Virus record (IMG/VR): IMGVR_UViG_3300044496_000045
Reading direction: 5' to 3' (one strand)
DNA from: a virus
DNA: 64,000 bases
A program made the position numbers and the translations under genes. The notes below the pieces were generated by a model. It was not told where the DNA came from. It was given only the letters and a program-made list of their open reading frames with translations, and searched no databases. Positions 2,943-62,116 of the stretch are shown here, one piece after another (position 1 is the first letter of the stretch; every line of letters starts with the position of its first letter).

Positions 2943-3209
2943 ATGGCCAAAACACGAAGCGCGGCGCCCGGCACCTATACCAGCAACGGCGTCCGCTGCA
3001 CGATGGATCCCCCGTTCAAGAGCGGCATGAACAAGGGATCACAGACCAACATGACTGGGGCCTTCGACAAGCCCCGTTCGGGTGGGGACAACGGCCTCCC
3101 GACGCGCGTGACCGATCGGACCGGTGGCGCCAAGGCGGCTCCGAAGGTGTCCAGTCGCGACTCGCTTGGGCATGTGCTGACCGAAGGATCGTCGAAGCAG
3201 CGCCGATAA
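2943..3209 (+). CDS. Small basic Gly/Lys-rich hypothetical protein (88 aa)
   Basis: GAGGAG RBS, ATG, fills the gap between structural genes. Confidence 0.75.
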   Translation: MAKTRSAAPGTYTSNGVRCTMDPPFKSGMNKGSQTNMTGAFDKPRSGGDNGLPTRVTDRTGGAKAAPKVSSRDSLGHVLTEGSSKQRR

Positions 3210-3236
3210 CAATCCCATAACTACCGGATTGTTATC
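3205..3236. promoter_or_regulatory. Perfect 11-bp AT-rich inverted repeat immediately before a TTG start
   Basis: GATAACAATCC (3205-3215), 10-nt loop, GGATTGTTATC (3226-3236). Confidence 0.55.
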
Positions 3237-3238
3237 CG

Positions 3239-4576
3239 TTGCCGTTCACGCTCCCGACGCTGGCGCAGGCGCAGACGGCGCTGGCCGCTCGCCTGAACGA
3301 TCCAGGGTTTATCCACTGGACTGCAGCGGAGCTGACTGTCTACATCCGTGAGGCGCTGCGGTGGTGGAATGCGGCCACCGCGCACTGGCGCGATCAGGAC
3401 GACTTCAACACAGCGGCGTTGACATCGTTCTACGATCTCGGGACCGTCATCGCGCCGCTGCGTGCCCGCACCGTCACCAACTGGGATCTCGTCACCGATC
3501 TGCAATATGCGCTGTGGGAGCCGCCAGCAGCCGGCGGCACCTGGACCGGCACCGATCAGTTCAATCTGGCGGTGCTGTCCACCGCCATTCAGCGCCGTCG
3601 TGATCAATTCCTCCGCGACACCGGCGCGATCCTGACCAACACGGTGACGGCATACTCACCCGCCCCTGCAAACGGCCGCATTGATCTCGACGAAGCCGTG
3701 CTGGTCGTGCGGCGCGGAGCGTGGGAACCGGTCGCCACGGGCTCGACCCTCCAGCCGCTGATGCGTACAGACGAATGGGCCGGGACGCACTTCGCGCCGG
3801 CATGGCCACAGTCGACGCAGTTACCGTTCTGTTACAGCACGTCGGTGGTGCCGCCGATTACCCTGCAGTTGATCCCGCCACCGGGCGCCGATGGCGATCT
3901 CGATCTCGTCTCCATCAACAAAGGGGCGGTGGTCGATCCGCTGGTGGCGCTCTCGCTCGGGATCCCGAATGACTTCGCCTGGGTGATCAAGTTCGGCGCG
4001 CTCGCCGATCTCCTCCAAGGTGATGGCCTCGCGCTCGATCCTGCCCGCGCCGCCTACTGCGAGGCTCGGTGGCAGGAAGGCATTGAGCTGTGCAAACGCG
4101 CGCCGGTGGTGCTCGCGGCGCGGATCGACGGTGTGACGTGTCGTGTCGGGAGTCTGGCGGACGCCGATAGCTATACGACCACGTGGCAAGTCATCCCTGG
4201 TGAGCCGCGCGAGCTGTTGCTGGCAGGCCAGAACCTCCTCGCGACGACGCCACGAGCCGATGCTGCGGGACCATATGTCATTCAGCTCGACGTGGTGCGC
4301 AACGCGCCGGTGCCCACGGTCGTCGGGGACATCTTGCAAGTCGGGCAGGACTTCTACGATTCAATTCTCGACTACGCGCAGCATCTGGCGCTGTTCAAGG
4401 AAGGTCCGGGACAGGTCGAAACCGCGACCGGGCTGATCCAACGTGCGGCCCAATCAGCCGGCGTCGCGCTGCGGATTCAGCAGGCGTCCCAGCCCTCGCG
4501 CCGGCCGCTGCTGCGACAGGATCAGCAGGACGCACAGGCGGTCGCGCGCGAGCTGCCGCCGGTGCCGGTGGAGTAA
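3239..4576 (+). CDS. Virion structural protein, second adaptor-like protein
   Basis: 445 aa, TTG start; ALAARLNDPGFIHWTAAELTVYIREAL resembles phage adaptor N-termini. Confidence 0.55.
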   Translation: MPFTLPTLAQAQTALAARLNDPGFIHWTAAELTVYIREALRWWNAATAHWRDQDDFNTAALTSFYDLGTVIAPLRARTVTNWDLVTDLQYALWEPPAAGGTWTGTDQFNLAVLSTAIQRRRDQFLRDTGAILTNTVTAYSPAPANGRIDLDEAVLVVRRGAWEPVATGSTLQPLMRTDEWAGTHFAPAWPQSTQLPFCYSTSVVPPITLQLIPPPGADGDLDLVSINKGAVVDPLVALSLGIPNDFAWVIKFGALADLLQGDGLALDPARAAYCEARWQEGIELCKRAPVVLAARIDGVTCRVGSLADADSYTTTWQVIPGEPRELLLAGQNLLATTPRADAAGPYVIQLDVVRNAPVPTVVGDILQVGQDFYDSILDYAQHLALFKEGPGQVETATGLIQRAAQSAGVALRIQQASQPSRRPLLRQDQQDAQAVARELPPVPVE

Positions 4577-4755
4577 TGACGTACAGCGAATGGTGCAAGG
4601 CGCACGGCTGTGATCACGCGCACTGCCCGCACGACTGCGAGCATCCGCAGCCGTTCTGTTTGGACGATGGCCGGCTGGTGTGCGGTGCGTGCTGGTTCAT
4701 TGGCTGCCGTGAGCTGGTCGATATGATCCCCTGCACGCCGGAGCACTGCGGATAG
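4576..4755 (+). CDS. Cys/His-rich 59-aa peptide
   Basis: MTYSEWCKAHGCDHAHCPHDCEHPQPFCLDDGRLVCGACWFIGC...; TAATG overlap upstream; stop abuts next ATG; below the ORF track cutoff. Confidence 0.65.
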   Translation: MTYSEWCKAHGCDHAHCPHDCEHPQPFCLDDGRLVCGACWFIGCRELVDMIPCTPEHCG

Positions 4756-7617
4756 ATGGCCAACTACACCCGGTCCCCGCAACGATTCTTCTACCGCGGC
4801 ATTGCGCTGCTGCCGGCGGACGCCCTGCCGCAAGGCAAAGTCGCCTTCGGCCAGAACATCCGCTCGTACCAAGAGGGCGTGATCATGCCTCGCTGGGGCA
4901 CCCAGCGGCAGACGGCGCTGGCGCTCGGGGCGCCGGATCCCGTCCATTCTCTCTTCCGGTTGAATGACACGAGCGCGTATGCGGATGTTGGGCTGCCGGC
5001 ACGACGCTTCGCGGGCGTCGATGACACGTTGTACACAGGACTCGTCACGCCGAGCGCCTGGACGCCAGGGATCACGGGATTCTCCGGCTCGCCGATGACA
5101 GGGGTCGTAGCAACACCGGTGAACTCGCCCCGCCCCTTCCTCTACGTCGCCGACACGCTGCTGCAGCGGAAGGTCAATAGCAGTCTCGACATCTTCCCGT
5201 TCGGGATTGAAACGCCGATCCTGCCGCCGGTCGCGGTACTCGACGAGATCCAGACGACCTTTCTTGAAAGTATCGACGCGGCGACCTGGGCGGATTACGG
5301 ATCCTCAACCGGCTATGCCGTCGTCTCGCGGATCAACACGCTCGTCAACGAGATCATCTACGACGTGGGTACGACGGGCATGGCCAGCGTCAATCTGGAT
5401 GACATGCGCGGCATCGTGCCGGGGACGACGGTGGAGATTGGGGCATCGCCGGTCACGGTGATCGTCCAGGAAGTCATCCCACCGGTGTCGTCCACCACGA
5501 TCGGTCGGATCCTGTACGACAGCGGCGCGTCTGGGCTCTGCACGATCCAACCCGATGGCAGCTTCACGGCGGGGCAGATTGAAGCGCCGTTGCCCGACGA
5601 GCTGCGCCGCCGGTACGAAGATCTCGGATTGCCCGTGCCTCCGCGGGTAACGGTGTCCCGCACGGTCGACTTCCCGGTCAACGGCCTCGTCATCCTCAAT
5701 AGCAGCGAGACGGTACGGATCCTGTCCATCGCGATCGGGCCGGATGGCACGATGTCGTTCCGCTGCGAGACTGCCGGCACCTTCGGCAGCGGCGACACGA
5801 TCGATGGGCTGTCGTGCTTCCGCGCGTACTTCCCGGTCACGCGCAATGCGGGCGATCCTGCGACCGCCTCCGCGGCGCAGAACAGCATCACCGCCGGCTC
5901 GGCGACCGTCCCCGTCGTGGGCGGCATTCAAGGGCCGATGTCGGCCTTCATTCGCAACTGGGGGTTGGTCGGCATCGAAGCCAGCAAACCGGATGACATC
6001 ATTCGCCTCGGTGTGAAGGTCAGTGCCTTTTTCTATCTGGAGTCGGTGCGGCTGCTGCTCAACGTGAACGATGACACGACCGGTGGCTCCGACTTCATGC
6101 AGAACTACTACATGTACGAGTGGCGCAAGAGCGATTTGGCCACCGCGATCCAGGCGACGCTCGGGGCGGCGACTGGGCTCATGGCCGATGCGCAGGCGGG
6201 CGCGGTTGATCAAGGGCAAGTCGACGCGGCGTACAGCGAGCAGTACGGACAGGATCCGTCGATCACGCGCGAAGGCTTTGCCCCGCCCGGTGCGCCCGGC
6301 GGCGTGTTCGATGTCACGCAAGGGCCGGGCGGCCGACCGATCGTTATTCGCCGCCGCACCGTGGTCCGCACCGATGGCTTTGTGTCAGCCGGTGCGACTT
6401 CCTCTCGGCAGTTGTCGCTGGGCGACGACCAATGGGTCATGCTGCAGTGTCGCGTGCGCGATCTCACCCGCATCGGCACCGATGCTACGCGCACCCTGTC
6501 ACACATCAACGCCGGAGCCTTCACCGTTCAGTTCCTGGGGACTACGTCGCCGATCACCTGCGAGTTCAGTGATTGTTATCTGACCGGTGGGTACGGGCCG
6601 GATGTCGGTGCGACGTTGCCGCCATATGTGTACCGGTACCGGGGGCGCTCGACGATCACGGGCGAGCGCGGTAATCCTTCGCCACCGATGCGCGCGGGCG
6701 TGCTCCCGCACCGCGGGCGCGTCATCCTGACCCCCGGTGACAACATCGTGGCCGCGCAGTGCGACGTGATCGATTGGTTCCGGTACGGTGGGGCGCTGGC
6801 GCGGTGGCAATACGTCGGCACGTCCGAGAACGATGATTCGCCACTCGTCGAGTTCCTGGATCCGATGGCGGACGCCGAGATCGATGGCGGCGAAGTGCTG
6901 CGAACGGATCTCTATCAGCCGTGGCCCAGTTTTGATCTGCCCCGGAACGGGATCGCCGAGCTGGCGGGTACGGCGCTGCTGCGCGTCTCGGGTGATCTCT
7001 TCGATGTGGACTGGGCGGCCGACTCTGCGATCATCGTCAACGGCCGTGCCACGTCGCTCTATCGATCGCCCGTCTCCACATCGCGCTTGGAAGTCGTCGA
7101 GAGCTGTGGTGAGGGCGCGCTGATCGAGTGGTCGATGCCGTCGCCGACGCTGCTGGCGCAGGCCCTGCCCGCCATCTGGGGCGGCCCGGTCAACAATGTC
7201 TACTTCACGTTCGCCTGTGGTGATCCGGCCGATCCAGGACTGCTGCACTGGACGCACGGCAACGATCCCGATGCGACATCGCCGGAGAACACCCTGGTCG
7301 TGACCACGCCCAGTGAGCCGCTGCAGAACGGCTTTTTCTTCGATGGCCAGCCCTACGTGTTTTCCACCGAGAAGCTGTACCGCATCGTGCCGACCTTCGG
7401 CGATGTGTCGGCGTTCCGCGCGATCGAAACGGCCTGCACCAAGGGCCTGTGGGGGCGTTGGGCGTTCTGCATCGCGCCCGAGGGGATCTATTTCCTGACG
7501 AAAGATGGGATCTGCCTGACCGCCGCCGGTGGTGAGGCGATCAATGTCACTGCGGAAGATCTCGCGATCATGTTCCCGCAGGACGGTGGCGATGCGTTTG
7601 TCGGGCCGGGCGCCTAG
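4756..7617 (+). CDS. Tail nozzle/stabilisation-like protein, N-terminal part (953 aa)
   Basis: C-terminal third has beta-propeller-like blades (LLHWTHGNDPD, YVFSTEKLYRI, GIYFLTKDGICL) as in P22 gp10/T7 gp12-like proteins; position. Confidence 0.6.
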   Translation: MANYTRSPQRFFYRGIALLPADALPQGKVAFGQNIRSYQEGVIMPRWGTQRQTALALGAPDPVHSLFRLNDTSAYADVGLPARRFAGVDDTLYTGLVTPSAWTPGITGFSGSPMTGVVATPVNSPRPFLYVADTLLQRKVNSSLDIFPFGIETPILPPVAVLDEIQTTFLESIDAATWADYGSSTGYAVVSRINTLVNEIIYDVGTTGMASVNLDDMRGIVPGTTVEIGASPVTVIVQEVIPPVSSTTIGRILYDSGASGLCTIQPDGSFTAGQIEAPLPDELRRRYEDLGLPVPPRVTVSRTVDFPVNGLVILNSSETVRILSIAIGPDGTMSFRCETAGTFGSGDTIDGLSCFRAYFPVTRNAGDPATASAAQNSITAGSATVPVVGGIQGPMSAFIRNWGLVGIEASKPDDIIRLGVKVSAFFYLESVRLLLNVNDDTTGGSDFMQNYYMYEWRKSDLATAIQATLGAATGLMADAQAGAVDQGQVDAAYSEQYGQDPSITREGFAPPGAPGGVFDVTQGPGGRPIVIRRRTVVRTDGFVSAGATSSRQLSLGDDQWVMLQCRVRDLTRIGTDATRTLSHINAGAFTVQFLGTTSPITCEFSDCYLTGGYGPDVGATLPPYVYRYRGRSTITGERGNPSPPMRAGVLPHRGRVILTPGDNIVAAQCDVIDWFRYGGALARWQYVGTSENDDSPLVEFLDPMADAEIDGGEVLRTDLYQPWPSFDLPRNGIAELAGTALLRVSGDLFDVDWAADSAIIVNGRATSLYRSPVSTSRLEVVESCGEGALIEWSMPSPTLLAQALPAIWGGPVNNVYFTFACGDPADPGLLHWTHGNDPDATSPENTLVVTTPSEPLQNGFFFDGQPYVFSTEKLYRIVPTFGDVSAFRAIETACTKGLWGRWAFCIAPEGIYFLTKDGICLTAAGGEAINVTAEDLAIMFPQDGGDAFVGPGA

Positions 7618-10600
7618 ATGGCCAAAACACAGATTCTCGAATACACGATCTGGTTGACCGACGAGGCGCTGGTCACTGCGTACAATGCACAGATGGCCGC
7701 CGGCAACGGGCCGGGGTTGCTGCTGTTCTACTACTCGCCCGCGCTCCAAGCGAACACCTTTGGCGTACTGCGGGCGCCGGAAACGGGCGCGGCGATCGAG
7801 TTCAGCGCGCCCTTCCAGCTCGACACCGAACCGTTTCTCGCGCCGTGTGTGCGATCGCCGTGGTTCACCGATGGCGCCAACTTCCCCACCAACGTCGCGA
7901 AGTTTACGCGCAAGTCCGGTGGGTGGTTCGGGTTGCCGATCCTGTTCGGTGAAACGACGGTGTTCTACTGGGCGGGGAAGTTCGCCTTCTCGCCGCCGTC
8001 TGTCGATTCGCCCGATCCGCCACCGGTCCCGCCTCCTGCCCTGATGGCGCGACGCTGGATCGAGGGCTTCGAGCTACCACGGACGGCGGGACAGCTTGCA
8101 GGCGGCGGTGGCGAGGGCGGCGCCGACGCCTCGCCGAATATCACCCGTGACTCGTCGCGCTCGGCCGATGGCTTTGGGTGTGCCGTGCGCAGTACGACGC
8201 TCGCCACGCGGCACTACGTCATGGAGTACCGCGGCGGTGGAACATCTGATCAACCGTGGTCCTGGGAACGGTTCTACTTTCGTCCGCGGCGCTATGGGGC
8301 CGCAGAAGTCGAAATCTGGGCGTGCGAGAGCCAATCGTCGAATGGCGGCGCACAGGATATGGGCTTCCGGCTGCGGATGGCGCCGAACGGCGGCCTGTTG
8401 GTGTACAGCTTCTCCGGGGTCGCGACGTTGCGGGCGACGGGGCCAGTCATGGCCATCGACACGTGGATCAAGATCGATCTCGTCATTGGGTACAACACCG
8501 AAGTCAACGCGCCACCGACTGCGCCGCCACTCTCGAACTTCGGATCGCTCCGCGTGTACATCAACGGCGTGCAGGTCATGGACGTGCCCCATGTCCTGTT
8601 GAATCCCTTGGCCAACTTCAGCCAACGGCATTACCGCAGCCAAATTGGTCCGCTCGCCGCCAACACAGCGGAGATGGACTACGACGACTGGATCAACGTC
8701 GACTGCCCGACTGCCGAGCCCGATCCCGGCTTTGATCTCCGCACGGCGGATTACGATCTCCTCGAAACACAAACCGACTTCATCGCGGGCACGCATTGCC
8801 AGCTCCTCCAGCCCTCGGACGTTGTCTCGCAAGTCAACTGGGTCGGCGCGTGGCAGCTCGCCCTCCAGCGGCCGATCGAAAATACCGGGACCGTGAATCG
8901 GCTGACGAGTTCGACGTCTGGCGCATCATTGAACCTGACCGCGGATGTCTCTCCGGCGCAACAGCGTGGGGGTGTCGTCGGCATCGGTGCCGTCGTCATG
9001 GGGTGGTACGGGCAGCGCGGCGTGGGAGCGGCCGGTAACGACACGCTCGAAATGGAGCTGGTGTTTGGGGCGGATCCACCAATCACATCATCGCGCAGTG
9101 TCGTTCCACCAGCCGCCAATACCCTCGAATGGCGATCCGTGCTCTACGACGCCGACGCCGTGGATCCGGCGCCTGTGCTCACGGCACTGGAACTGCGGTT
9201 CCTCCATGGGGCGGATGTACTGCAGCGCACGGTCAGTTCGTTACAGGCGGTGGCCGAACAAATTGGGGTGTTCGGGCCTGAAGATACGGCCGCGGCTGAC
9301 TACCCACCGCAGCCGCCGATCTCACCGCACAATTCGGCGTATCCGTTCACGCCATGGGCCACCGGCGGAGCGCCACTGTTCGGCGCGGTGGCGGCGATCA
9401 CCGGCTCCTATCTGAGCGATGGGTTGCCGCTCGATCTGGAGTTCCCCCTGCCGGTGCAGATGTTGTGGATCCGCCGCACGTCGGGGACGGCGGCGCAGAT
9501 GCGGGGCGCGCAGTGGTGGACGTCGCTGCTCACGTCGCACTTCCTCCAGGAACAGCCCATCATCCCCTACGCCGTGCCTATGGCGCTGCGCGATCCAAAC
9601 TTCCCGCCTCCGGTGGCGGAAGACGATCAGGAAATGCAGTTCCTGGTCCGGATTGCCACCAACGATGAACACATCAATGCCGCGGGCGCGACCTACGCCT
9701 ATCTGGCCATCTGCGATCCGGCGGCGCGCTTCGTTCAGTGTGGGGCGTCTGCGCACACCGCACCATTCCCGATCACCGAGCCGCTACCGAATCCGAACTT
9801 TACGCCGGATGCGGGGTTCTTTTTCTCCGAGGATCGTGGGGCGAACGCGCTCATTAGTGCGGCCTACAAGGGGCCGGATCACGCCGCCAATGAAGCGTCC
9901 CTGCTTAGCGGTGGGGCACTCCTCACCAATTATGTGAACTTCGGTGCTGGCGAACTGGACGAGCGGACGAATTTCTTCCCGGTCAACACGGAGCAAACCT
10001 CCTACGTTCTCTTCCGCCACAGTGACGGGAACGTCGGCACCGGATCTGAGGCGACGCTGTTTCAGACCGCGGTGTATGTCGGGGATGGCGTCAACCCTCG
10101 AACGATCGATCTGGATCCGCTGTTTGGTGTGCGGCCGATGTGGGGTATCGGGATCGGGCCAGCCGCCAACGGCGGACGGCAGCGCGATCCGAGTCACACC
10201 GGGACGACGAGCACGAACATGGGCACGGGCGAGATCGTGGCGGCCAACGGCATCCGCGGGGGTGGCATCGATCAGATCATTGTCGGTTCGGATCTGAATG
10301 CGAACGGTGTCACCTACTACGTCTTCGTCATCCCTGGGTGTGGCGGTGAGGGCGAAGGCGGCTGGGGGGTTGAAAGCACCTGCTATGTCGTCGAGCCGGA
10401 CTCGGCCTTCGATCCGGGATGGATCGAGCCCGAGGAAATCGACCCCGGTGGCGGCGACGATGTACCGGCCATCCCGCCGATTGACTTCAGCAATCCCGAG
10501 CGGTTGCGGCTGACCTACATCGATCGGATGGTGTACTTCGACTACGCCGACACCGAGGGCGATGGCCACACGTTGCTGTTCGAGCCGCTGTACAAGCGGT

Positions 10601-21523: not shown

Positions 21524-21764
21524 GCAGCTCGGCCTCCTCCAGCCGCTCCAGATGTTTGGTGATCCGATCGGCGACTTCGGCCGCGAACGTCGCGATGTCC
21601 GGCTTGCTGAACATGGTCGCCACGCCGGCTGTGATCGTCGCCGATATGAAATCGCGCACGATCGCACGGGCCAGCCCACGCCGATAGAAGATGCGGGACT
21701 CGGACACCGCCTGCTTGTAGGCTTCGACTTCCTTTATGCGACGTGCCGCGCCAGGAACCGCCAT
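21513..21764 (-). CDS. Hypothetical protein (83 aa)
   Basis: GGAGGA RBS; coupled into the operon. Confidence 0.65.
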   Translation of the reverse strand: MAVPGAARRIKEVEAYKQAVSESRIFYRRGLARAIVRDFISATITAGVATMFSKPDIATFAAEVADRITKHLERLEEAELHVH

Positions 21765-22879
21765 TCCTCCTCCTCGCCTTCCCCTTCGCGGGGCAGTACT
21801 GGGTCATCCGGGCCGGCCGACAGCACGTACGCTGGCAGCGTCAGATCCTCCATGCCGCTGAGATTCAGCGGTACGTCGTGCCCGGTTTTGATCTTGATCT
21901 TGATCTGCTCGTCTTCGTCGATGTGGGGTGCCCAGTTCCGCCCTTGCTTGGCGCTGACCCCGATGGGGAGGTACTCGCCCCAGCCCCACGCGACGGGAAT
22001 GGGTAGATACGTGCTGGGCCGCTGCATGACGGTCGCCACCATCTCCACCACCCGATCCCAGCAACGATTAGGGATATGGAGTAACAGAGAATCGTGAATC
22101 GGGGAAAGTAATGGAGTCCGACCAAAGTAGCAATCGCCAATATAGAAAGGGGACCAAGGGCAGAATAGATCAAGCTCCGCCTCCTTGAGGCGCCCGGCCG
22201 CAATCGACTGCGGATAGAACGCGATCACGCGGTTGCCATCGCCACCGAAGTCCACCTTGAAGTACCGCCCGTGCATCTGCACGATGCGGTGCGCGCGCGT
22301 CGGATCCTTCAACCACTTGCGCGCGGTGAACTCATTGATCGGTTTGTAGTTGAGTACGTCCCAGAACCAATGCTGGTACCCGTAGGGGTGATCCCACATC
22401 GTCGCGGGGATGCCGGGCATGGTTGGGCCGCCGAGTCTCCCCGCTTCGCGCGCCTGTTTCCGCAGGGCCTGATGCCACTTCGGCAGATCCGGCGCCAGCG
22501 CGTAGTAGTACGTCTCGAACTCCTGGGCGATCTTGAGGGTCGGAAAGAACTCCGGGAACTTCTCGACTTGCCCGTAGGCGGTCATCCCGAAGTTCTTCGC
22601 GTGGACCGTGCGCTTCGAGGTGTCGTATTCCTTCGGATAGCCTTTTTTGATCGTGTCGAGATTGGCTTTGACGATCAGATCCTGCTGAGAGAGATCGACA
22701 GGCTTACCGACCTTCAGCGATGTCACCGCTGCGTGCATGCCGAGACGGGCGAGGCGGATGTATTGCTTGGCGCGGTCGGCATCGAAGCCGTGCGTCCACA
22801 GGCAGCGGCCGGTTAAGACGGCTTCGATCCCGGAGAAGTCGACTTCGAGGATCCGGCAGGAGGTATCGGCAGTGATCAT
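21734..22879 (-). CDS. polA: Family A DNA polymerase, C-terminal catalytic part
   Basis: Motif A LEVDFSGIEAV, motif B-like KRTVHAKNFGM, YPQSIAA, motif C IHDSLLL. Confidence 0.88.
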   Translation of the reverse strand: MITADTSCRILEVDFSGIEAVLTGRCLWTHGFDADRAKQYIRLARLGMHAAVTSLKVGKPVDLSQQDLIVKANLDTIKKGYPKEYDTSKRTVHAKNFGMTAYGQVEKFPEFFPTLKIAQEFETYYYALAPDLPKWHQALRKQAREAGRLGGPTMPGIPATMWDHPYGYQHWFWDVLNYKPINEFTARKWLKDPTRAHRIVQMHGRYFKVDFGGDGNRVIAFYPQSIAAGRLKEAELDLFCPWSPFYIGDCYFGRTPLLSPIHDSLLLHIPNRCWDRVVEMVATVMQRPSTYLPIPVAWGWGEYLPIGVSAKQGRNWAPHIDEDEQIKIKIKTGHDVPLNLSGMEDLTLPAYVLSAGPDDPVLPREGEGEEEEWRFLARHVA

Positions 22880-23073
22880 TCGGTGATGCGCTGAATGAAA
22901 AATTGCTTGTGCTGCCAGCTCTGGAACGCCGCGAGATTGAAGATCAGCGTCACGTCATAGCTCCGGATGTGACTGACGGGACCACGTTCGGTGAGCGTGC
23001 GTTCGACATCGGCGGCGAACATGAGTGCATCGGTGCTGTGCCGCATGCCGCGGAACCATTCGCGGACCGTCAC
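22876..23073 (-). CDS. Hypothetical protein (65 aa) between the polymerase halves
   Basis: Overlapping start/stop junctions on both sides. Confidence 0.7.
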
Positions 23074-23690
23074 TTCGTCACCAGCAACGTCGCCAAGTGT
23101 TTCGATCGCGACTGGTGCCGCAGCTTCCGCATTGCCTTGCCTTCAATCTGCCGGATCCGTTCTTGCGTGACGGCAAAGTGCTGGCCTACCTCGTGTAAGG
23201 TTCGCTCCCCATTGCCGTCGAGTCCGTATCGTAGTGTGAGCACGCCAGCTTCGCGCTTCGTGAGCGTGGCCAGCACCTGTTGAATCAAGGCGCTCCGCTC
23301 CTGCTGCTCCATGAGTTCGTCCGGTCCGGCTTCGAGCGCCAATTGCCGCCGCGCGGCCATGAGGGGCAGGAACGTCGCCGCCTCCATTTCAATCGCCGCC
23401 TTCGGATTGATGACAGTTGCGTAGAGGGCCGGCGGGAACAATTCGTCCACGGATAGCCCCAGGATCGTACAGAGACGCTGGGCGAGTGGACGAATGACAA
23501 GTCGACGTGTCGTCGTCAGTTGGCCTCGCGTGCCGTAGGGGCTCACCGTAAGATTCAAGAAACTCCCCACCGCCCCCTGATCGATCGTATGTACCCGGCA
23601 GAACGCGGACACACTGGGGTATTCATCGAAAATCGCGTGCCAGAGCACGTTGTTCCGCGCACGCAGTTCGATGCGAAGATCCTTGGTCAC
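23070..23690 (-). CDS. XRE-like HTH plus sigma70 region 4 domain protein
   Basis: C-terminal [50 protein letters not shown] closely matches RpoD region 4; N-terminal SVSAFC...[18 protein letters not shown] is HTH-like; no region 2. Confidence 0.85.
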
Positions 23691-24157
23691 TTCGTCACCA
23701 CAACAAACCGATCATCCAGATCCCACAGCAGTGGCTGCACTTGATCCCAGGTCAGCCCGCCGTTGCCGCAGCCCGGCCGAGGCAGCACGACGCGGCGCCA
23801 CTCCAAGCGATCCGCCAGCGCGATCAGCTCGTACGCGCTCTGTTGAATCAGCGCGAGATCCGCCAGCTCCATCCATTCGTGCTTCACGGGGAAGACGACC
23901 AACGTCCACGGCGGTGGTGGCACGAGTACCCCAACATGATTGCCGTACGCGGTGAGGTAGTGGCCGAGCCGACGCTGGAGCGTCACCGGCCGTCGCCCCG
24001 GCGTCGTGTGTTGCGCGTTGTAGCGGTTCGCGGCTTCGAGCGCGCAGCCCCGGCCCATGACGCCCAGCCCGCGGCCGGTGATGGTGCCGTTGGTCGTGAT
24101 GACGACGGCATCGGCAGTCGCGCCGGCTGCCCAGAGATCGGTGCGGTGTTCAATCAT
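23687..24157 (-). CDS. Macrodomain protein (DarG/Poa1p-like)
   Basis: [45 protein letters not shown]. Confidence 0.85.
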
Positions 24158-24323
24158 CGTCGTCCCTATCCTCCAGGATGGCGATCAGTTCCGCCTCGTC
24201 CTGATCGATCACGCGCGTGTTGTGTTCCGCGCAGGCCCACACGCCGGGGATCCCCTTCTCGTTCTGGCGGTACAGTGTGATCGGATCCTGCGGCGGCCCG
24301 AGCCCACAGACGTGACACTTCAT
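24150..24323 (-). CDS. Small zinc-finger-like protein (57 aa)
   Basis: MKCHVCG...WACAEH; ATGA overlap with the polymerase N-part stop. Confidence 0.65.
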   Translation of the reverse strand: MKCHVCGLGPPQDPITLYRQNEKGIPGVWACAEHNTRVIDQDEAELIAILEDRDDDD

Positions 24324-26497
24324 GCGGTACCCCACTTCGCCTGCCACGCGGCGAACTCCTCGGGCGTGATGGACGGCGGCGGTTGATCGCGGGCTTCGAT
24401 GCAGCGTCGGAACCCAGACGCCAATCCGTCAGGGCCGGCTTTGTCAGCGACGACGTTCTGCAGGTTCGGGTTGGTGCAACTATCACGCAGTGTCGACGGC
24501 TTGCACGACAGCTCCGGATGCACGCGATCATCCGCGTCCAGGCGCGACAACGTGCCCACCGCGTAGGTGCTGTCCACCTTTTGTACAGCCTTCCAATCCA
24601 TTTCGAGCTGGAAGAATGGGTCATCAGCGTGCTCTTTCTTCAGTTGCTCCATCGCCTTTTTGTTGGTGGTGGCGCGGCCTTTTTTGCGATCGATCGGCGC
24701 GTCGATCCCTTGCTGCGCGAGGTAGGCGAGGATCTGCTGCGGGGCGTCCGGGTTGAAGGGGAGCTGCCAGAAGTAGCGAGCCTGCTGAACAGTTCGCTGC
24801 TCAAGATTTGGTGTTGGGCGTACAACTTCCACCACAGGCTGCCCGCGCGGGCGCTTTGGTTGAGCGGGGCGTGGGCAGCGATGCTTCGCTCCAACTGCCT
24901 CCGCATGGCACGTAAGGCAGACACGGACGCTGATGTCGATATTGCGCTGAACAAGTGTGACTCCCTCCAGCATGTACGCCATCTTCGCTTCGCCGCCGCC
25001 CTTTTTCGGTTTGCCGAGGATCGAGGCGGGCGGTTGCCGCTGTGGCATCTTCCGTTGTCCCTGACAGACAGGGCACACAACGTCATCGAACTCACTTTGC
25101 TTCTCGCCGTCACACGCCCAGCAGGTTTCCATCGGCCGCTTCGCGTACCCGAGCTTTGGCTTCAGCACGCCTTGCGCGGCCGTCTCTTTCATCCGGGCTA
25201 ACACACTCCCGAGCTTCCGCTGTAGATCCTCATGGAACGCCTGCAGCTCCACCCGGTTGATCGGCACACCCATTTCGGTCGCTGGTCGCAGCACGTATTG
25301 ATCGCGTTCGTGCCAGTCGCGCATGAACACATCCCAGATGCCGTACTTGATCGCATCCTTCAGTAGCCACATGCAGACGCGCCAGTTCTGCAGGCCGTCC
25401 GCCGCCGCGTACACGCCTTCCTTTTCTTTATCCTTGCCCCAGTGCTTCCAGGCACCGAAGTCGCTGGCCATCGGCGCGACAAAGCCCAGCCCGCGAGGCA
25501 GATCGCTTTGTAGGTAATGCCAGACCCACATGCCGTCGATCGCCATGATCCCGGTGAGGGTATGGCCGGCCTGCCGCAGCTTGTCCCAATCGACGTACTT
25601 GTTCCACAGCCACACCCAACCGCCGAGACGCGCGAGCCCGGACAGCAGGCGTTCGGTGTGGCCGATATAGGGACCGCGGTACGGCACGGTCATCCCCATC
25701 ACCGAATCGTTCCCGACATTCACGCGCGTGATCAGCGTCCCCGATCGCTCGACTTCGGATTCGTCGGCGCCCATCTTCTCGGGGAACTCGGTATCGAGCG
25801 ACAGATGTGTCCCATCAGGATCAGTGGTTGCCCGCTCAAGGTGACGATCAACCCAGGCGCCGTACACGTCGGGAACGGGATCGACAATGAGCTGGGCCGT
25901 GGAGCGCGTAAAGCCGGACTGACTAATCCGATGTGCCAGACGTACATCTTGTGTCACCACGTCGAGCAGGTTCATCGCTCCACGTTGTAAATGCGATGGG
26001 TGGTAGGACGGGACGATCCAGTACCGGTTATCGGCACTGCGCGTCACGGTCCCGTGGAAGTCTTTCACCGCGACGCCAGGGACGCCGGCCAGCCCTAAGA
26101 TCGCGTCGAGCGCGGTGGCCCCAAGCGGCATGACGACGCCGTTGTCCGGCACGCTGTCGAGCAGCGGTTGGAGATATTGCCGACACATGGCGATCGCGTG
26201 CTGTTCCCAGGGGGCGCCGGCTAGGAAGTCATTGGGCGGCCGGCAGCTCACAATGTTGCCGATCCGCACATGCTGGCGATCGATCCCGGCCCGGTGGAAA
26301 ATCCGGCTCAGGACGCCCCCGGCCGAGCCGTAGAAGGGCTCTCCGGCGACCGCCTCCTCATAGCCGAGGGCTTCGCCGATGGCCGTCAGGCGAGCCCCCA
26401 GCGGTCCAGACGGGGGTGCGTAGCCGAAGCCGATGGTTTCCAGGCTGCAGCCCGCGCAGCCGGCCGGCTTGAGGTACTTAGGATTCTGGGCTGGCAT
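24320..26497 (-). CDS. polA: DNA polymerase A N-terminal part: UDG family-4-like domain, 3'-5' exonuclease, thumb
   Basis: GCAGCSL, IGEALG..E...GEPFYGSAG, SCRPP, YHPS (UDG); LSLDTE, WNKYVD, YAAAD (Exo I-III); ends NPNLQN...FRRCIEA just before where motif A should be. Confidence 0.88.
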   Translation of the reverse strand: MPAQNPKYLKPAGCAGCSLETIGFGYAPPSGPLGARLTAIGEALGYEEAVAGEPFYGSAGGVLSRIFHRAGIDRQHVRIGNIVSCRPPNDFLAGAPWEQHAIAMCRQYLQPLLDSVPDNGVVMPLGATALDAILGLAGVPGVAVKDFHGTVTRSADNRYWIVPSYHPSHLQRGAMNLLDVVTQDVRLAHRISQSGFTRSTAQLIVDPVPDVYGAWVDRHLERATTDPDGTHLSLDTEFPEKMGADESEVERSGTLITRVNVGNDSVMGMTVPYRGPYIGHTERLLSGLARLGGWVWLWNKYVDWDKLRQAGHTLTGIMAIDGMWVWHYLQSDLPRGLGFVAPMASDFGAWKHWGKDKEKEGVYAAADGLQNWRVCMWLLKDAIKYGIWDVFMRDWHERDQYVLRPATEMGVPINRVELQAFHEDLQRKLGSVLARMKETAAQGVLKPKLGYAKRPMETCWACDGEKQSEFDDVVCPVCQGQRKMPQRQPPASILGKPKKGGGEAKMAYMLEGVTLVQRNIDISVRVCLTCHAEAVGAKHRCPRPAQPKRPRGQPVVEVVRPTPNLEQRTVQQARYFWQLPFNPDAPQQILAYLAQQGIDAPIDRKKGRATTNKKAMEQLKKEHADDPFFQLEMDWKAVQKVDSTYAVGTLSRLDADDRVHPELSCKPSTLRDSCTNPNLQNVVADKAGPDGLASGFRRCIEARDQPPPSITPEEFAAWQAKWGTA

Positions 26498-41519: not shown

Positions 41520-41564
41520 GTCAAATCATTGACATTGACAGCGTGCTTTTCATCGACGTAGGCT
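41520..41564 (+). promoter_or_regulatory. GTCAA-N4-TTGAC operator overlapping a rightward promoter
   Basis: GTCAAATCATTGAC 41520-41533; tandem TTGACATTGACA; TTGACA(41535)-18 nt-TAGGCT(41559). Confidence 0.65.
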
Positions 41565-41617: not shown

Positions 41618-42556
41618 ATGCCTCCAGCCTTCCCCGATCCCATTCCCGGCATCATCCCATTCGGCACCGTCACGATTTTTGCCGGCGCCCCAGGCGTCGG
41701 GAAGACCGCGATGCTCGCCGACTGGATTGTCCGCTGGCGGGACGGCCGCCCGATTTGGGGGCATTCGACCAACCCACCGTCCCAGTTCTGCTATTTGGCC
41801 GCCGATCGGCAATGGGCGAGTCATCAGCAGTGGTTCAACCGGGCTGGATACCCGGACATTCCACGGTATTCGGTTGCCGACGATCCCCTGTTTGACCTAA
41901 AAGAACTGCTAAAGCCCTACAATGCCCTGGATCTGTTCCGTCGCGCGCTGGATAAGGTGAATAATGGCACCTATCCGATCCCAGGCGCGCATGTGTTTGT
42001 CGATCCTGTCTCCCCGGTGTTCATTGCGGGATCCCCGAATAACTCCAGGGACGTGGCGCGTACCCTCCTCGGCATGTCCCGCGAATGTCAGCAACGAGAG
42101 ATCAATCTGACGTGCGCTGCACACTTTGGCAAGCAGCTCGCGGATAAAAACTCCCGGTACGCCCGTCCACAGGACCGTATTGCCGGATCGACCGCCTTTT
42201 CAGGATTTTCAGACACCCAAATCTACCTTATTGACCCCGAACTCCCCGATCATCCGTTCCATGTACTGGGCTGGAACCCGCGGCTTGCCCAGCCGGAAGA
42301 GTTTACCTGCACACGGGATTACAAAACTGGGCTATTCATCCCGTACGACTTTATTAAAGACGACGAAACGGCCTCACAGATCCTGGATTGCTTCGAGGCC
42401 ACCGGGACCACGTCACTTGCGGTCATCGTCGAGCGTGCCCAGCTCCAACACGGCCACCACCGCATGGTCGTGCGCCGGGCGCTCGATCGGCTCCTGACGC
42501 AAGGGCGAATCTGCAAGCTCGGCCGCGGCAAGTTCCAGCGCGTCCGCATCCATTAA
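41618..42556 (+). CDS. RepA/AAA_25-like replicative helicase with C-terminal winged helix
   Basis: TIFAGAPGVGKT, VFVDPVS, AAHFGK, AGSTAFSG; C-terminal TSLAVIVERA...VVRRALDRL..QGRI.K.GRGKF. Confidence 0.75.
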   Translation: MPPAFPDPIPGIIPFGTVTIFAGAPGVGKTAMLADWIVRWRDGRPIWGHSTNPPSQFCYLAADRQWASHQQWFNRAGYPDIPRYSVADDPLFDLKELLKPYNALDLFRRALDKVNNGTYPIPGAHVFVDPVSPVFIAGSPNNSRDVARTLLGMSRECQQREINLTCAAHFGKQLADKNSRYARPQDRIAGSTAFSGFSDTQIYLIDPELPDHPFHVLGWNPRLAQPEEFTCTRDYKTGLFIPYDFIKDDETASQILDCFEATGTTSLAVIVERAQLQHGHHRMVVRRALDRLLTQGRICKLGRGKFQRVRIH

Positions 42557-46921: not shown

Positions 46922-46950
46922 ACCTTAACATGGCGTTATTACCGTGTCAA
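46922..46950 (-). promoter_or_regulatory. Leftward sigma70-like early promoter
   Basis: Minus strand TTGACA-17 nt (ending TGT)-TAAGGT. Confidence 0.7.
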
Positions 46951-49571: not shown

Positions 49572-49640
49572 CGTCTGATCTCCTCTACGCCGGACCGTTG
49601 CAGCCGGCCTGTTGTGCGCTACTCTATCGCGCATAGCGCC

Positions 49641-49670
49641 ACGTTAATCCAGCTATCGGCCACGTGTCAA
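49641..49670 (-). promoter_or_regulatory. Leftward sigma70-like early promoter
   Basis: Minus strand TTGACA-18 nt-TAACGT upstream of the DUF6011 gene. Confidence 0.6.
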
Positions 49671-49718: not shown

Positions 49719-49750
49719 GTCAAGCAATTGACAGGCGTCAAATCGTTGAC
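49719..49750. promoter_or_regulatory. Two perfect GTCAA-N4-TTGAC operators in tandem
   Basis: GTCAAGCAATTGAC 49719-49732; GTCAAATCGTTGAC 49737-49750. Confidence 0.7.
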
Positions 49751-49859
49751 ACCTGTGTGACAGGATTGTAAGTGGCAGGAATGCCGCACGATCGGGCAAG
49801 ATCGGGCGATCTATCCGGCCGGAGGCATGCGCGCGCCATACCTTCCCCCGTGAGTCTCG

Positions 49860-50146: not shown

Positions 50147-50230
50147 GTCAATTTTTTCACTGTCAATTTTTTGGCACCTGCCCAGGTTCTGCACGAGATC
50201 AGGGCACACACCCACCGTCAGCACATTGAC
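50147..50230. promoter_or_regulatory. Three one-mismatch GTCAA-N4-TTGAC operators upstream of the late operon
   Basis: GTCAATTTTTTCAC 50147-50160; GTCAATTTTTTGGC 50162-50175; GTCAGCACATTGAC 50217-50230, followed by TTGACATTGACA. Confidence 0.6.
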
Positions 50231-50269
50231 ATTGACAGAACGCACAAGATTGGCGAGACTCGCACCACG

Positions 50270-56885: not shown

Positions 56886-59093
56886 ATGTACGACCGCGCG
56901 ACGACGCAGCGGATCATCGAGGCGGTCAACCAAGAGCAGGGCTGGGATCTCCAGTACCACACGGCCGGCCAAATCGACCACGCGATCAGCCATTTCAAAA
57001 ATCTCTACGATCCTGAGCAGCGGCAACTCGTGCGCCCGCTCGCGAAGGATGAAGCCCGCTTCATCGAAAACGAGCAGAAGCTGTGTGCGCTCGACTTCCG
57101 CGGCTATTGGGTCCGCCGGTACGCCAAGATCGTCGATTGGGCCAAGCGGCCGGTCGCCTTCACGCCCAACGTCGCGCAGGAAATCGTCATGGATCTCTGG
57201 GCCGAGCGCGAAGCGCAGGGATTAGCCATCTGGATGCAGCAGCTCAAGGCCCGGCGCCTGGGCGTCAGCACGATCTCCGAATTGGCCGTCTGTCACCGCT
57301 ACCAGTTCCATCCCTTCTCGAACTGCGTCGTCGCCTCGGCCGATCCGGACAAAACGATCCAGATGGCCGGCATGATCAAGTACGCGCTCGACGAGCAGCC
57401 GTGGTGGTTGCTGCCGCGCACCACCAAGATCAAGGGGGGCATTCCCGTCGAGTTCGCCGATCTGCACTGCACGCTGACGGCGGAAGCCGGCAACCAGTTT
57501 ACCGGCGTCGCGCGTGGCGCCACCCCGAACGTCGTACACCTCTCGGAGCTGTGTGAATGGCAGGATGCGGAGGATCTGGTCGACGCGGCGTTGATGCGCG
57601 CGATTATCGACACGCCGGACGTGTTCGGCATTCTCGAATCAACGGGCGGCGGCGTGGGCAATTGGTGGCACAAAACCTGGGAGCAGAACAAGCGCGATTA
57701 CCAGCGCGGTCGCGCGCGCGTGATCCCCGTGTTTCTCCCTTGGTTCGTCGGGACTGACCTGTACCCCTCAGAAGCCGATCTGCGCGCGCGACCAATCCCC
57801 CGCGATTGGGTACCGACCGATCGATCCGTCCACCACGCCGAACGTGCCCGATCGTACGTCCTGACCAACCCGATGCTGTTCAAGCATCTGGCGCACGGCA
57901 ACACCGACTGGCGCATGTCGCGCGAGCAGATGTGGTTCCGCGAGATCGAGTACGAAACCGCCAAGGAAAAGAAACAGCTCAACATCTTCCTCGCCGAGCT
58001 GTGTGCCGACGACTTCGAGGCGTTCCAATCCTCGAACATCCCGGTCGTCGATCAGGAAGTGCTGATGGCGTACCAGGAGCGCACACGGCCGCCGCGCGCC
58101 TGTTACACGATCATCGGGCCGGAGATCCCGCCATCCCTGATCGTCGCGCGGCGGCATTGGGATCAGACACAGCCCTCCATCACCATCAAGACACGCGAGC
58201 TGCTGCCGAAGTTCGACGCGACGTTTCAGTTGGTACCGCTGAAATTCGAGGGCTATCCGTCATTCGACGAGGCGCTCAAATTGCTGGTCTGGGAGTACCC
58301 GGAAGACGGCTACAGCTACGGCATCGGTGTCGACACGTCGGACGGCGTCGGGCAAGACAACTCTGTCATCCAAATCATGCGCGAGTCGACGCCGATGCGG
58401 CCTCCCGGCCAAGTCGCCGAGTTCGCGTACGACTACATCAAGGCGATGCAGCTCTGGCCGCTCGTCATGGCGGTCGGCACGTACTACTCCGTGTACAACC
58501 CGAAGGTCGGCCGTCGCACGCAAACCAAGCTCTGTATTGAGTGCCGCGGGAACGGCGAAGCCTGCCAGTACGAGCTGCAGAAGCGTGGCTGGAGCGCGTT
58601 CCACGTCTGGAAGCGGTACGACAATAAAAAGCCAACCCCTGATATGAACGCGCACAAGATCGGCATCTATACGAATCAGTGGTTCCGGGCGCAGATGATG
58701 GACATGCTGCTGACGTGTGTCGACGAGGAAGCGATCGATCTCCCGTCGCCCTATCTCGTCCAGGAATTGGTCACGCTCGAACGCGATCCTGATCAGCAGA
58801 AACAAAAAGCGGCCTACGGCGCCAATGACGATCGCGTGATGGCGATCGGGTTTCCTCTCTTCTCGCTCCACGTGGGCAAGCGCCCGAATCAGCAGTATTC
58901 GCGCCGCAAGGTCGAGTACGCGCCCGGACTGGCGGCCGATCCCTCCATCCCGCACCCGACGTGGCAGCCGCCCGCGCAGGCGAGTTCCCGCCCCTTCGCC
59001 GGGCGGATGACGCAGCCGTCGCTCCGCGACGCGGTGAAATATGGGAACCTTGGTCGTATCGTCAACCGTGATCTCCCGAAGGGCTACCGCTAA
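56886..59093 (+). CDS. terL: Terminase large subunit
   Basis: QLKARRLGVST (Walker A), VHLSELCEW (Walker B), ILESTGGG, IGVDTSDG and DDRVMA nuclease motifs. Confidence 0.92.
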   Translation: MYDRATTQRIIEAVNQEQGWDLQYHTAGQIDHAISHFKNLYDPEQRQLVRPLAKDEARFIENEQKLCALDFRGYWVRRYAKIVDWAKRPVAFTPNVAQEIVMDLWAEREAQGLAIWMQQLKARRLGVSTISELAVCHRYQFHPFSNCVVASADPDKTIQMAGMIKYALDEQPWWLLPRTTKIKGGIPVEFADLHCTLTAEAGNQFTGVARGATPNVVHLSELCEWQDAEDLVDAALMRAIIDTPDVFGILESTGGGVGNWWHKTWEQNKRDYQRGRARVIPVFLPWFVGTDLYPSEADLRARPIPRDWVPTDRSVHHAERARSYVLTNPMLFKHLAHGNTDWRMSREQMWFREIEYETAKEKKQLNIFLAELCADDFEAFQSSNIPVVDQEVLMAYQERTRPPRACYTIIGPEIPPSLIVARRHWDQTQPSITIKTRELLPKFDATFQLVPLKFEGYPSFDEALKLLVWEYPEDGYSYGIGVDTSDGVGQDNSVIQIMRESTPMRPPGQVAEFAYDYIKAMQLWPLVMAVGTYYSVYNPKVGRRTQTKLCIECRGNGEACQYELQKRGWSAFHVWKRYDNKKPTPDMNAHKIGIYTNQWFRAQMMDMLLTCVDEEAIDLPSPYLVQELVTLERDPDQQKQKAAYGANDDRVMAIGFPLFSLHVGKRPNQQYSRRKVEYAPGLAADPSIPHPTWQPPAQASSRPFAGRMTQPSLRDAVKYGNLGRIVNRDLPKGYR

Positions 59094-62077: not shown

Positions 62078-62116
62078 GTCATTTGCTTGACACGTGACAA
62101 TTGGTCTGCATACACT
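62078..62116 (+). promoter_or_regulatory. Promoter overlapped by a one-mismatch operator
   Basis: GTCATTTGCTTGAC 62078-62091; TTGACA(62087)-18 nt-TACACT(62111). Confidence 0.65.

Follow-up and report, generated by a model that had tools for sequence, protein, structure and literature searches.

What does a phage protein do when it carries the -35-recognition domain of a housekeeping sigma factor and no recognizable region 2 or 3? This question is raised by a gene on the minus strand at 23070..23690 of a 64,000-nucleotide stretch of viral DNA (IMG/VR record IMGVR_UViG_3300044496_000045, hereafter the window), a phage contig of ~64% G+C from an uncultured virus. The gene encodes a two-domain protein of 206 amino acids (aa) and lies between the halves of a split DNA polymerase. 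We tentatively favor, at a little under an even chance, that the protein is a promoter-specificity co-factor of the host RNA polymerase, with its sigma region 4 (sigma-4) in the β-flap/-35 position. The open reading frame (ORF) begins with GTG in the ORF list, and this N-terminus is backed by homologues sharing the start M-x-K-D-L-R. The gene shares 4 nucleotides (nt) with a neighboring gene at both its start and its stop, its G+C content at third codon positions is 0.73, and its codon-position G+C is usual for this phage. It is a genuine gene embedded in an operon.

Judged by alignment, the C-terminal third of the protein (residues ~132-204) is a full sigma region 4 of the RpoD type. Regions 4.1 and 4.2, comprising helices H1-H5, occupy residues 132-204 (23079..23297, minus strand), equivalent to residues 540-612 of E. 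coli sigma70, whose numbering equals ours plus 408 from residue 134 on. Pfam PF04545 (Sigma70_r4) matched residues 139-192 with an E-value of 5.7e-17 and 61.4 bits, the cut-off being 24.1. The top NCBIfam matches were RpoD equivalog models aligned to residues 121-203 alone, with scores far under the full-length cut-offs in a match confined to the last ~80 residues. The closest solved structures were isolated domains 4 of RpoD/SigA (1tty, 4g6d, 1tlh and others; E 1e-19 to 1e-20), to which identity was ~55-66% without gaps over residues 136-203, and the structural match of our model to sigmaA/RpoD domain 4 reached Z 10.7-11.7 with VIA. All five helices align with RpoD/SigA region 4 without gaps, and they share the RKLRH(P)SRS tail and an all but identical -35 helix. 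The differences are that sigma-4 here follows a repressor-like helix-turn-helix (HTH) rather than regions 1.2-3, that R584 is replaced by Q, and that the protein is encoded by a phage.

The -35 recognition helix and adjoining basic patch were placed at residues 174-191 (23118..23171, minus strand; sigma70 582-599) from the RpoD alignment and from conservation in the family. An earlier note on this DNA had remarked that the C-terminus nearly matches the RpoD -35 recognition helix, and this held: four of the five base-contact residues are retained (E585, R586, R588 and Q589), the fifth, R584, being Q176. The group-1 tail RKLRHPSRS...L and the far C-terminal helix H5 are also present. Such a tail is usual in group-1 sigma factors, where it lies on the side that contacts the flap and activators. 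In sigma70, region 4 (540-613) comprises H1-H5, of which H1, H2 and H5 face the β-flap and H5 touches the flap tip (PMC2988021). The conserved -35-contact residues together with H5 fit a working sigma-4 module; a sigma-4 serving only as a generic HTH could dispense with H5.

Homology to region 2 or 3 was looked for by several routes and not found, in agreement with the earlier note's view that 206 aa without region 2 are too short for a full sigma factor. Searches of Pfam and NCBIfam returned no Sigma70_r2, extracytoplasmic function (ECF) sigma-2 or region 3 match, and TIGR02937 covered only residues 116-193. Aligned to full-length sigma factors with hhalign, the protein matched over residues 117-203 alone (probability 99.4%), and its N-terminal half by itself reached a probability of 1%, though collinear with sigma region 3. 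Hidden Markov models (HMMs) of the N-terminal half and N-terminal domain (N-domain) scored negatively against sigma factors, and sigma-2 was absent from the top 50 matches in a fold search of the N-domain. One HMMER alignment that extended into region 3 of HrdB was not reproduced with other sigma factors. The protein thus has neither region 2 nor region 3 and, because it lacks region 2, is not a complete sigma factor.

The earlier note's reading of an HTH domain joined to an RpoD-like region 4 held, with a linker between the two. The protein was modeled twice with AlphaFold2, once as a whole with 17 homologues and once over residues 1-122 with 9. The N-domain comprises residues 4-92 (23415..23681, minus strand), as delimited by the models and structural matches. 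Both models agree, with predicted local distance difference test scores above 90 for the greater part of residues 10-50 and 65-92. Predicted helices span residues 14-21, 27-33, 38-45, 68-77 and 81-92, and a small predicted β-sheet consists of strands 4-10, 52-55, 63-66 and 97-103, the last inside the linker. When the isolated N-domain was searched against ~48,000 solved chains with VIA, 48 of the 50 top matches were lambda-repressor-like/XRE-type HTH domains, with Z 5.5-8.1 and root-mean-square deviations mostly of 2.2-4 Å over 53-77 residues, most of them end to end. They included dr_2454 (Z 8.1), BldD (7.7), ImmR (7.6), P22 c2 (7.3), and TP901-1 CI, the 434 repressor and SinR (each 7.1). The full-length model gave the same lambda-repressor-type matches, and the top Foldseek rows were also XRE-type, at non-significant values (E ≥ 0.2).

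The earlier note's description of the N-terminus as an XRE-type HTH therefore stood in part: the predicted fold is lambda-repressor-like, but no XRE Pfam family or PDB entry matched by sequence. Specifically, the N-domains of nine family members gave no HTH_3, HTH_31 or HTH_26 match in Pfam, the only matches being HTH_36 (2 of 9, E 0.0034) and HTH_35 (1 of 9), and a sequence search against solved proteins in the PDB gave none. HTH_3 or HTH_31 was matched in 5-6 of 134 full-length members, and in the located case (P0050) the match falls within sigma-4. Clusters in the ESM Atlas with HTH_3 in 79-95% of their members are a lead only. A five-helix lambda-repressor-like HTH is accordingly supported for the N-domain as a predicted fold, not as membership of the XRE family by sequence. 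Residues 93-131 (23298..23414, minus strand) form a linker, recognized by low pLDDT and poor conservation. Within it, E101 is conserved and an L-A-L-P-P-like motif runs into sigma region 4.1; likeness to sigma factors starts near residue 117-123.

How widespread is this architecture? A word-indexed search recovered 17 full-length homologues of 189-330 aa, in which Sigma70_r4 was the only precomputed Pfam domain. When 1.84 billion representatives were searched with a profile, its full length was matched by at least 140 clusters (50% identity), most of them of 190-230 aa. In the ESM Atlas, 30 clusters of 50-192 members each matched at 0.92-0.97; their proteins have 183-212 aa, are labeled 75-100% viral and bear names such as 'hypothetical' or 'Helix-turn-helix/Sigma-70, region 4 domain-containing protein'. 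By tblastn, the full protein and two divergent N-domains gave sigma-4-only matches or nothing among 50,697 phage records, so that no cultured phage was seen to carry the N-domain, and PHROGs offered generic sigma families only, which matched the sigma-4 part alone. A literature search found no paper describing an HTH plus sigma-4 architecture. The two-domain architecture is therefore that of a large family of phage and metagenome sequences in which no studied member was found. Sigma-4-only proteins of phages and mobile elements are a known kind; here, a housekeeping-type sigma-4 is fused to a lambda-repressor-like domain in a form that is abundant in, and was seen only in, uncultured phage and metagenome sequences.

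Mean pairwise identity among 153 family members was 42% in the N-domain, 42% in sigma-4 and 23% in the linker. Since the two domains are equally constrained and the linker drifts, both are functional and act as one unit. In the same members, the DNA contacts are conserved at E585 (71%), R586 (92%), R588 (78%) and Q589 (90%), the basic patch at R596 (84%), K597 (80%), R599 (90%) and H600 (72%), and H5 at R603 (78%) and L607 (76%, or 90% with I and V included). Residues equivalent to R554, R562, F563, G564, K593 and P601 of sigma70 are also strongly conserved, and the R584 position alone is variable; in our protein, the residues kept in the family are E177, R178, R180, Q181, R188, K189 and R191. 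The most invariant motif of the N-domain is R6-E8-R10-R12-N13-N14-L16-W17-H18-I20-D22, followed by the blocks S26-R32, V41-L47, P51 and L84-Y90. At the start of its putative recognition helix, positions 38-40 and 43 vary, and the patch formed by R6, E8, N13, L16, W17 and H18 is more conserved than that helix, which fits a contact target common to many hosts. C-terminal extensions occur in ~19 of the 153 members, and those of ten longer members (261-375 aa) matched no Pfam family.

In the co-factor reading, the protein is made from the long leftward replication/middle operon. Its sigma-4 would dock on the β-flap tip via H1, H2 and H5, by analogy with domain 4 of sigma70, and the HTH within sigma-4 would read a TTGACA-like -35 hexamer. 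On its flexible linker of ~38 residues, the N-domain would make a second contact, most likely with DNA beside the -35 region or, alternatively, with polymerase or sigma70. At selected phage promoters, the protein could in this way supplant or assist recognition of the -35 region, with -10 recognition and melting provided by host sigma70 or by an unrecognized phage sigma-2-like partner. Replication/middle modules are the usual place of phage late-gene switches, and in every relative with context the gene lies in such a module.

Known proteins lend this mechanism precedents: those characterized with region 4 but without region 2 all act positively on specific promoters, by binding polymerase or the promoter DNA. 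SigO of B. subtilis and Sig7 of Tn916 are likewise small proteins having region 4 without region 2 that act on the host core at specific promoters, and Sig7 is encoded by a mobile element. SigO works with RsoA, the pair having formerly been named yvrI-yvrHa and forming one operon (PMC8103513), and Sig7 works with Sig8 and associates with RNA polymerase (10.64898/2026.10.01.756105). No counterpart of these small sigma-2-like partners (RsoA; Orf8/Sig8) was found in the window or in a complete relative, and the comparison concerns region 4 only. The Sig7 report also cites T4 gp33 with gp55 as a split sigma of the SigO/Sig7 kind (10.64898/2026.10.01.756105). LtrA of staphylococcal phage 37, in which Sigma70_r4 is the sole recognizable domain, is a late activator of the terS promoter (PMC3753634). 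Like our protein, it is a small phage protein with Sigma70_r4, and it activates a phage promoter; however, its similarity to region 4 is limited, whereas ours is strongly RpoD-like and has an extra HTH domain. LtrA-type genes also stand directly upstream of terS/the late operon, whereas our gene is ~34 kb from the large terminase gene (56886-59093) and on the opposite strand.

Takeover of the β-flap/sigma-4/-35 node for promoter switching is also the strategy of T4 gp33 and of AsiA/MotA (PMC2988021). These T4 factors are unrelated to our protein in sequence or fold, and T4 remodels or replaces sigma-4 whereas our family has a true one. More broadly, AsiA, gp33, gp39 and gp67 are unrelated small proteins that seize this node, in contrast to the true housekeeping-type sigma-4 used here. 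A structural analogy, and only that, is given by the lambda cI N-domain lying beside sigma-4 on DNA (1rio), where both folds of our protein are adjacent at a promoter; chains of 1rio were among the fold-search matches of each half. The lambda pair consists of two separate proteins, with sigma-4 inside the holoenzyme, whereas here both folds share one polypeptide. Should the protein dock on polymerase, it would offer a simple means of rewiring promoter choice that is widely distributed, as well as a natural sigma domain acting in trans and a part for synthetic promoter control.

The most enriched intergenic 7-mer of this phage is ATTGACA, with six of its eight occurrences in the non-coding 6.9% of the window. 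About nine intergenic TTGACA boxes, in both directions, are followed 17-18 nt on by weak -10-like hexamers (TTGACA-N17/18-TAnnnT), among them TAGGCT, TAAGGT, TAACGT, TAAGTG, GAGACT and TACACT. Promoter-like sites with a perfect TTGACA are at 46950(-), 49670(-), 49746(+), 50232(+), 41535(+), 62087(+) and 12858(+), of which 50232 and 62087 are ahead of structural genes. The site at 49670 would yield an almost leaderless transcript for the gene starting at 49634. No phage RNA polymerase was recognizable in the 64-kb window. Given the enrichment of ATTGACA, the TTGACA promoter-like sites and the lack of a recognizable phage polymerase, the phage seems to depend on -35-driven transcription by the host polymerase.

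Several results weigh against a co-factor role. A sigma profile run over all window ORFs matched our protein alone, via region 4, and so gave no candidate for a sigma-2-like partner. PF04542 was likewise unmatched in the complete relative G005 and in two partial relatives, although a very divergent partner of the RsoA or gp55 type would escape both searches. The window showed no separate promoter class lacking a host-like -35 box, and no conserved composite DNA motif tied to the family was found in relatives. Across divergent loci, no neighboring gene family recurs. The XRE assignment of the N-domain comes from predicted structure alone.

A further objection concerns the hosts. Family members in three metagenome-assembled genomes (MAGs) of ~1 Mb keep the RKLRHPS tail, and the RpoD proteins of those MAGs are without it. 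Each family sigma-4 that we compared resembled a canonical RpoD more closely than the one encoded in its MAG (39-62% identity, figures for which alone we used the canonical comparator L039 and the family member L005, both from the unpublished genome G002). That sigma-4 does not follow the RpoD of the MAG argues against fine-tuned mimicry of each host, an argument softened by the high conservation of the flap tip itself. From these comparisons, the sigma-4 module looks like an old, vertically kept part of a phage gene and not a repeatedly re-captured host piece. The RpoD proteins of the three MAGs (L040, L041 and L042, from G003, G004 and G001, respectively) resemble one another and end in ...ALEKMQKMEGIEKLRDY-like sequences; two of these MAGs are labeled Gammaproteobacteria.

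A possible alternative, though an unlikely one, is that the protein regulates independently of polymerase: its XRE-like and sigma-4-like HTHs would read a bipartite or dimeric site and act by occupying DNA, for example by blocking the -35 boxes of early or host promoters, with sigma-4 serving merely as a TTGACA reader. The folds of both domains are of DNA-binding types, the residues that contact the -35 box are conserved, and a Pfam scan recognized no other HTH regulator in 19 early-region ORFs. LuxR/GerE-type HTH domains bind DNA as dimers. Sigma-4 is structurally akin to this type in the fold search, and tandem paralogues at two loci, L007 and L028, hint at dimers. Such a regulator would leave the conservation of H5 and the RKLRHPSRS tail unexplained, and no conserved target motif was found in relatives. 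The tandem paralogues are at 3067-3708 and 3717-4382 in L007 and at 3-635 and 644-1309 in L028; the first copy is without the N-domain W-H motif and without the RKLRHPSRS tail. They may reflect a heterodimer or subfunctionalization.

We regard as rather doubtful a version of polymerase docking in which one protein suffices. Here, the phage sigma-4 would displace domain 4 of sigma70 from the β-flap, sigma70 would be held through its regions 2-3, and the N-domain would read a phage-specific element. The outcome would be a three-part holoenzyme of core, host sigma-2/3 and phage sigma-4 with a new promoter preference. If this were true, the holoenzyme could resist factors that inactivate host sigma-4.

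Less probable again is a competitive inhibitor or decoy, an idea raised in the earlier note, in which free sigma-4 would compete with domain 4 of sigma70 for the flap tip or -35 boxes, or titrate sigma-4 binders. During the replication phase, this would silence host or early-phage transcription that depends on a -35 box. Sigma-4 and the flap are established phage targets, as AsiA, gp39, G1 gp67, EP1 and PP1 show; the family keeps an RpoD-like sigma-4, and the gene is placed in an early/middle operon. However, the phage's own promoters depend on TTGACA and have weak -10 elements, those ahead of structural genes at 50232 and 62087 included, so a general competitor for the -35 box or flap would harm the phage itself. 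The equally conserved N-domain would also be superfluous for a pure decoy. Known sigma-4-only proteins are activators, and because LtrA, SigO, Sig7 and T4 gp33 are positive, promoter-specific factors, a co-factor role is no less likely than that of a decoy.

The window also contains palindromes of the form GTCAA-N4-TTGAC (core GTCA-N6-TGAC), of which nine were found at ≤ 1 mismatch versus 0.88 expected, grouped at promoters. Five rightward promoters have GTCA-N6-TGAC, in which GTCA precedes the TGAC of the -35 box by six bases; mostly this takes the form of the GTCAA-N4-TTGAC palindrome, overlapping the consensus TTGACA. The palindrome-bearing promoters are rightward and lie at 41520-41540, 49719-49751, 50217-50237 and 62078-62092. 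It is very improbable that these sites are read by a dimer of our protein, placing two sigma-4 domains on TTGAC half-sites at rightward promoters, even though the half-site is the -35 core, the sites are in excess and clustered at promoters, and the protein is the sole sigma-4-bearing ORF in the window. The family-bearing relative G005, which is complete at 41.4 kb, has no such palindromes, nor does the family-bearing locus L021, its homologous promoter region included. As family-bearing relatives lack them, the palindromes are probably read by something other than our protein, and the operator-binding role that the earlier note had listed as one option is disfavored on the same grounds. The relative G008, a 44% fragment that stops short of the replication module, keeps such palindromes, including one ahead of its AAA_25 gene. 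A tandem TTGACATTGACA occurs inside an identical 15-mer at two palindrome-bearing promoters; searched for in viral contigs, the 15-mer CATTGACATTGACAG proved too unspecific to be useful. We give equally little credence to a replication-linked DNA binder (origin or partition) or a vestigial captured rpoD fragment, since the gene is always in replication modules and here sits between polymerase halves, but sigma-specific features are under strong purifying selection across at least 140 divergent clusters and no single replication gene shows a conserved link.

Turning to the setting of the gene, the order in the window is the N-terminal part of the polymerase, a small zinc-ribbon ORF, a macro-domain-like gene, our gene, a 65-aa ORF and the C-terminal part of the polymerase. 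The N-terminal part of this family-A DNA polymerase is at 24320..26497 on the minus strand (Pfam UDG 7.4e-21 and DNA_pol_A 2.7e-10; phrog_17); it starts with a domain resembling uracil-DNA glycosylase (UDG) followed by the beginning of the polymerase domain, and carries a zinc-finger-like insert of the form CxxC...CxxC. The C-terminal part, at 21734..22879 on the minus strand, also matched phrog_17 and DNA_pol_A, the latter with E 0.0025 and 17.3 bits, under the cut-off of 34.3, over profile positions 328-379 of 381. Immediately upstream of our gene, a 156-aa macro-domain-like protein is encoded at 23687..24157 (minus strand), its stop overlapping our start in GTGA; it matched Pfam Macro with E 0.0014 and 19 bits, under the cut-off of 22, and phrog_335 with 2.6e-15. 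The downstream 65-aa ORF (22876..23073, minus strand), which overlaps our stop by 4 nt, has no family match and is not kept in a 71%-identical relative. The tight leftward operon also encodes two DNA methyltransferases, a nucleoside deoxyribosyltransferase-like protein and a Dda-like helicase, and the genes for terminase, portal and tail lysin are on the plus strand. By blastn, neither the locus nor the window had a nucleotide match among the 50,697 phage records.

The earlier note had tied the protein to the replication phase through its position inside the split polymerase. The replication/middle setting holds in all relatives with context, whereas the polymerase position is found only in the closest ones. 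In the 71%-identical relative (L011/L012), the homologue likewise lies between polymerase halves, in the order N-terminal part, our gene, macro, ~0.8 kb without a match in the window, and C-terminal part. Compared with the window at 21734-26497, L011 at 4549-10134 has the macro and sigma-4 genes in swapped order and different small ORFs. Because the inter-polymerase cassette differs between close relatives, the polymerase split hosts a variable insert. Elsewhere, the gene precedes a Dda-like helicase gene in L021 (45% identity, same phage group), follows a 5'-3' exonuclease gene and precedes a Dam methylase gene in L003, and is upstream of DnaB in L004.

Two further observations arose from these searches. 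The family profile also drew five proteins of 589-1722 aa (P0047, P0098, P0173, P0180 and P0183) with 7-13 tandem stretches resembling sigma region 4, an unusual architecture. In the window, an AAA_25 (RepA/DnaB-like) ATPase gene at 41618-42556 (+) stands alone within a minus-strand block under its own palindrome-bearing promoter. Its true start is probably the ATG at 41618 and not the GTG at 41543, because the latter is only 2 nt past the -35 box.

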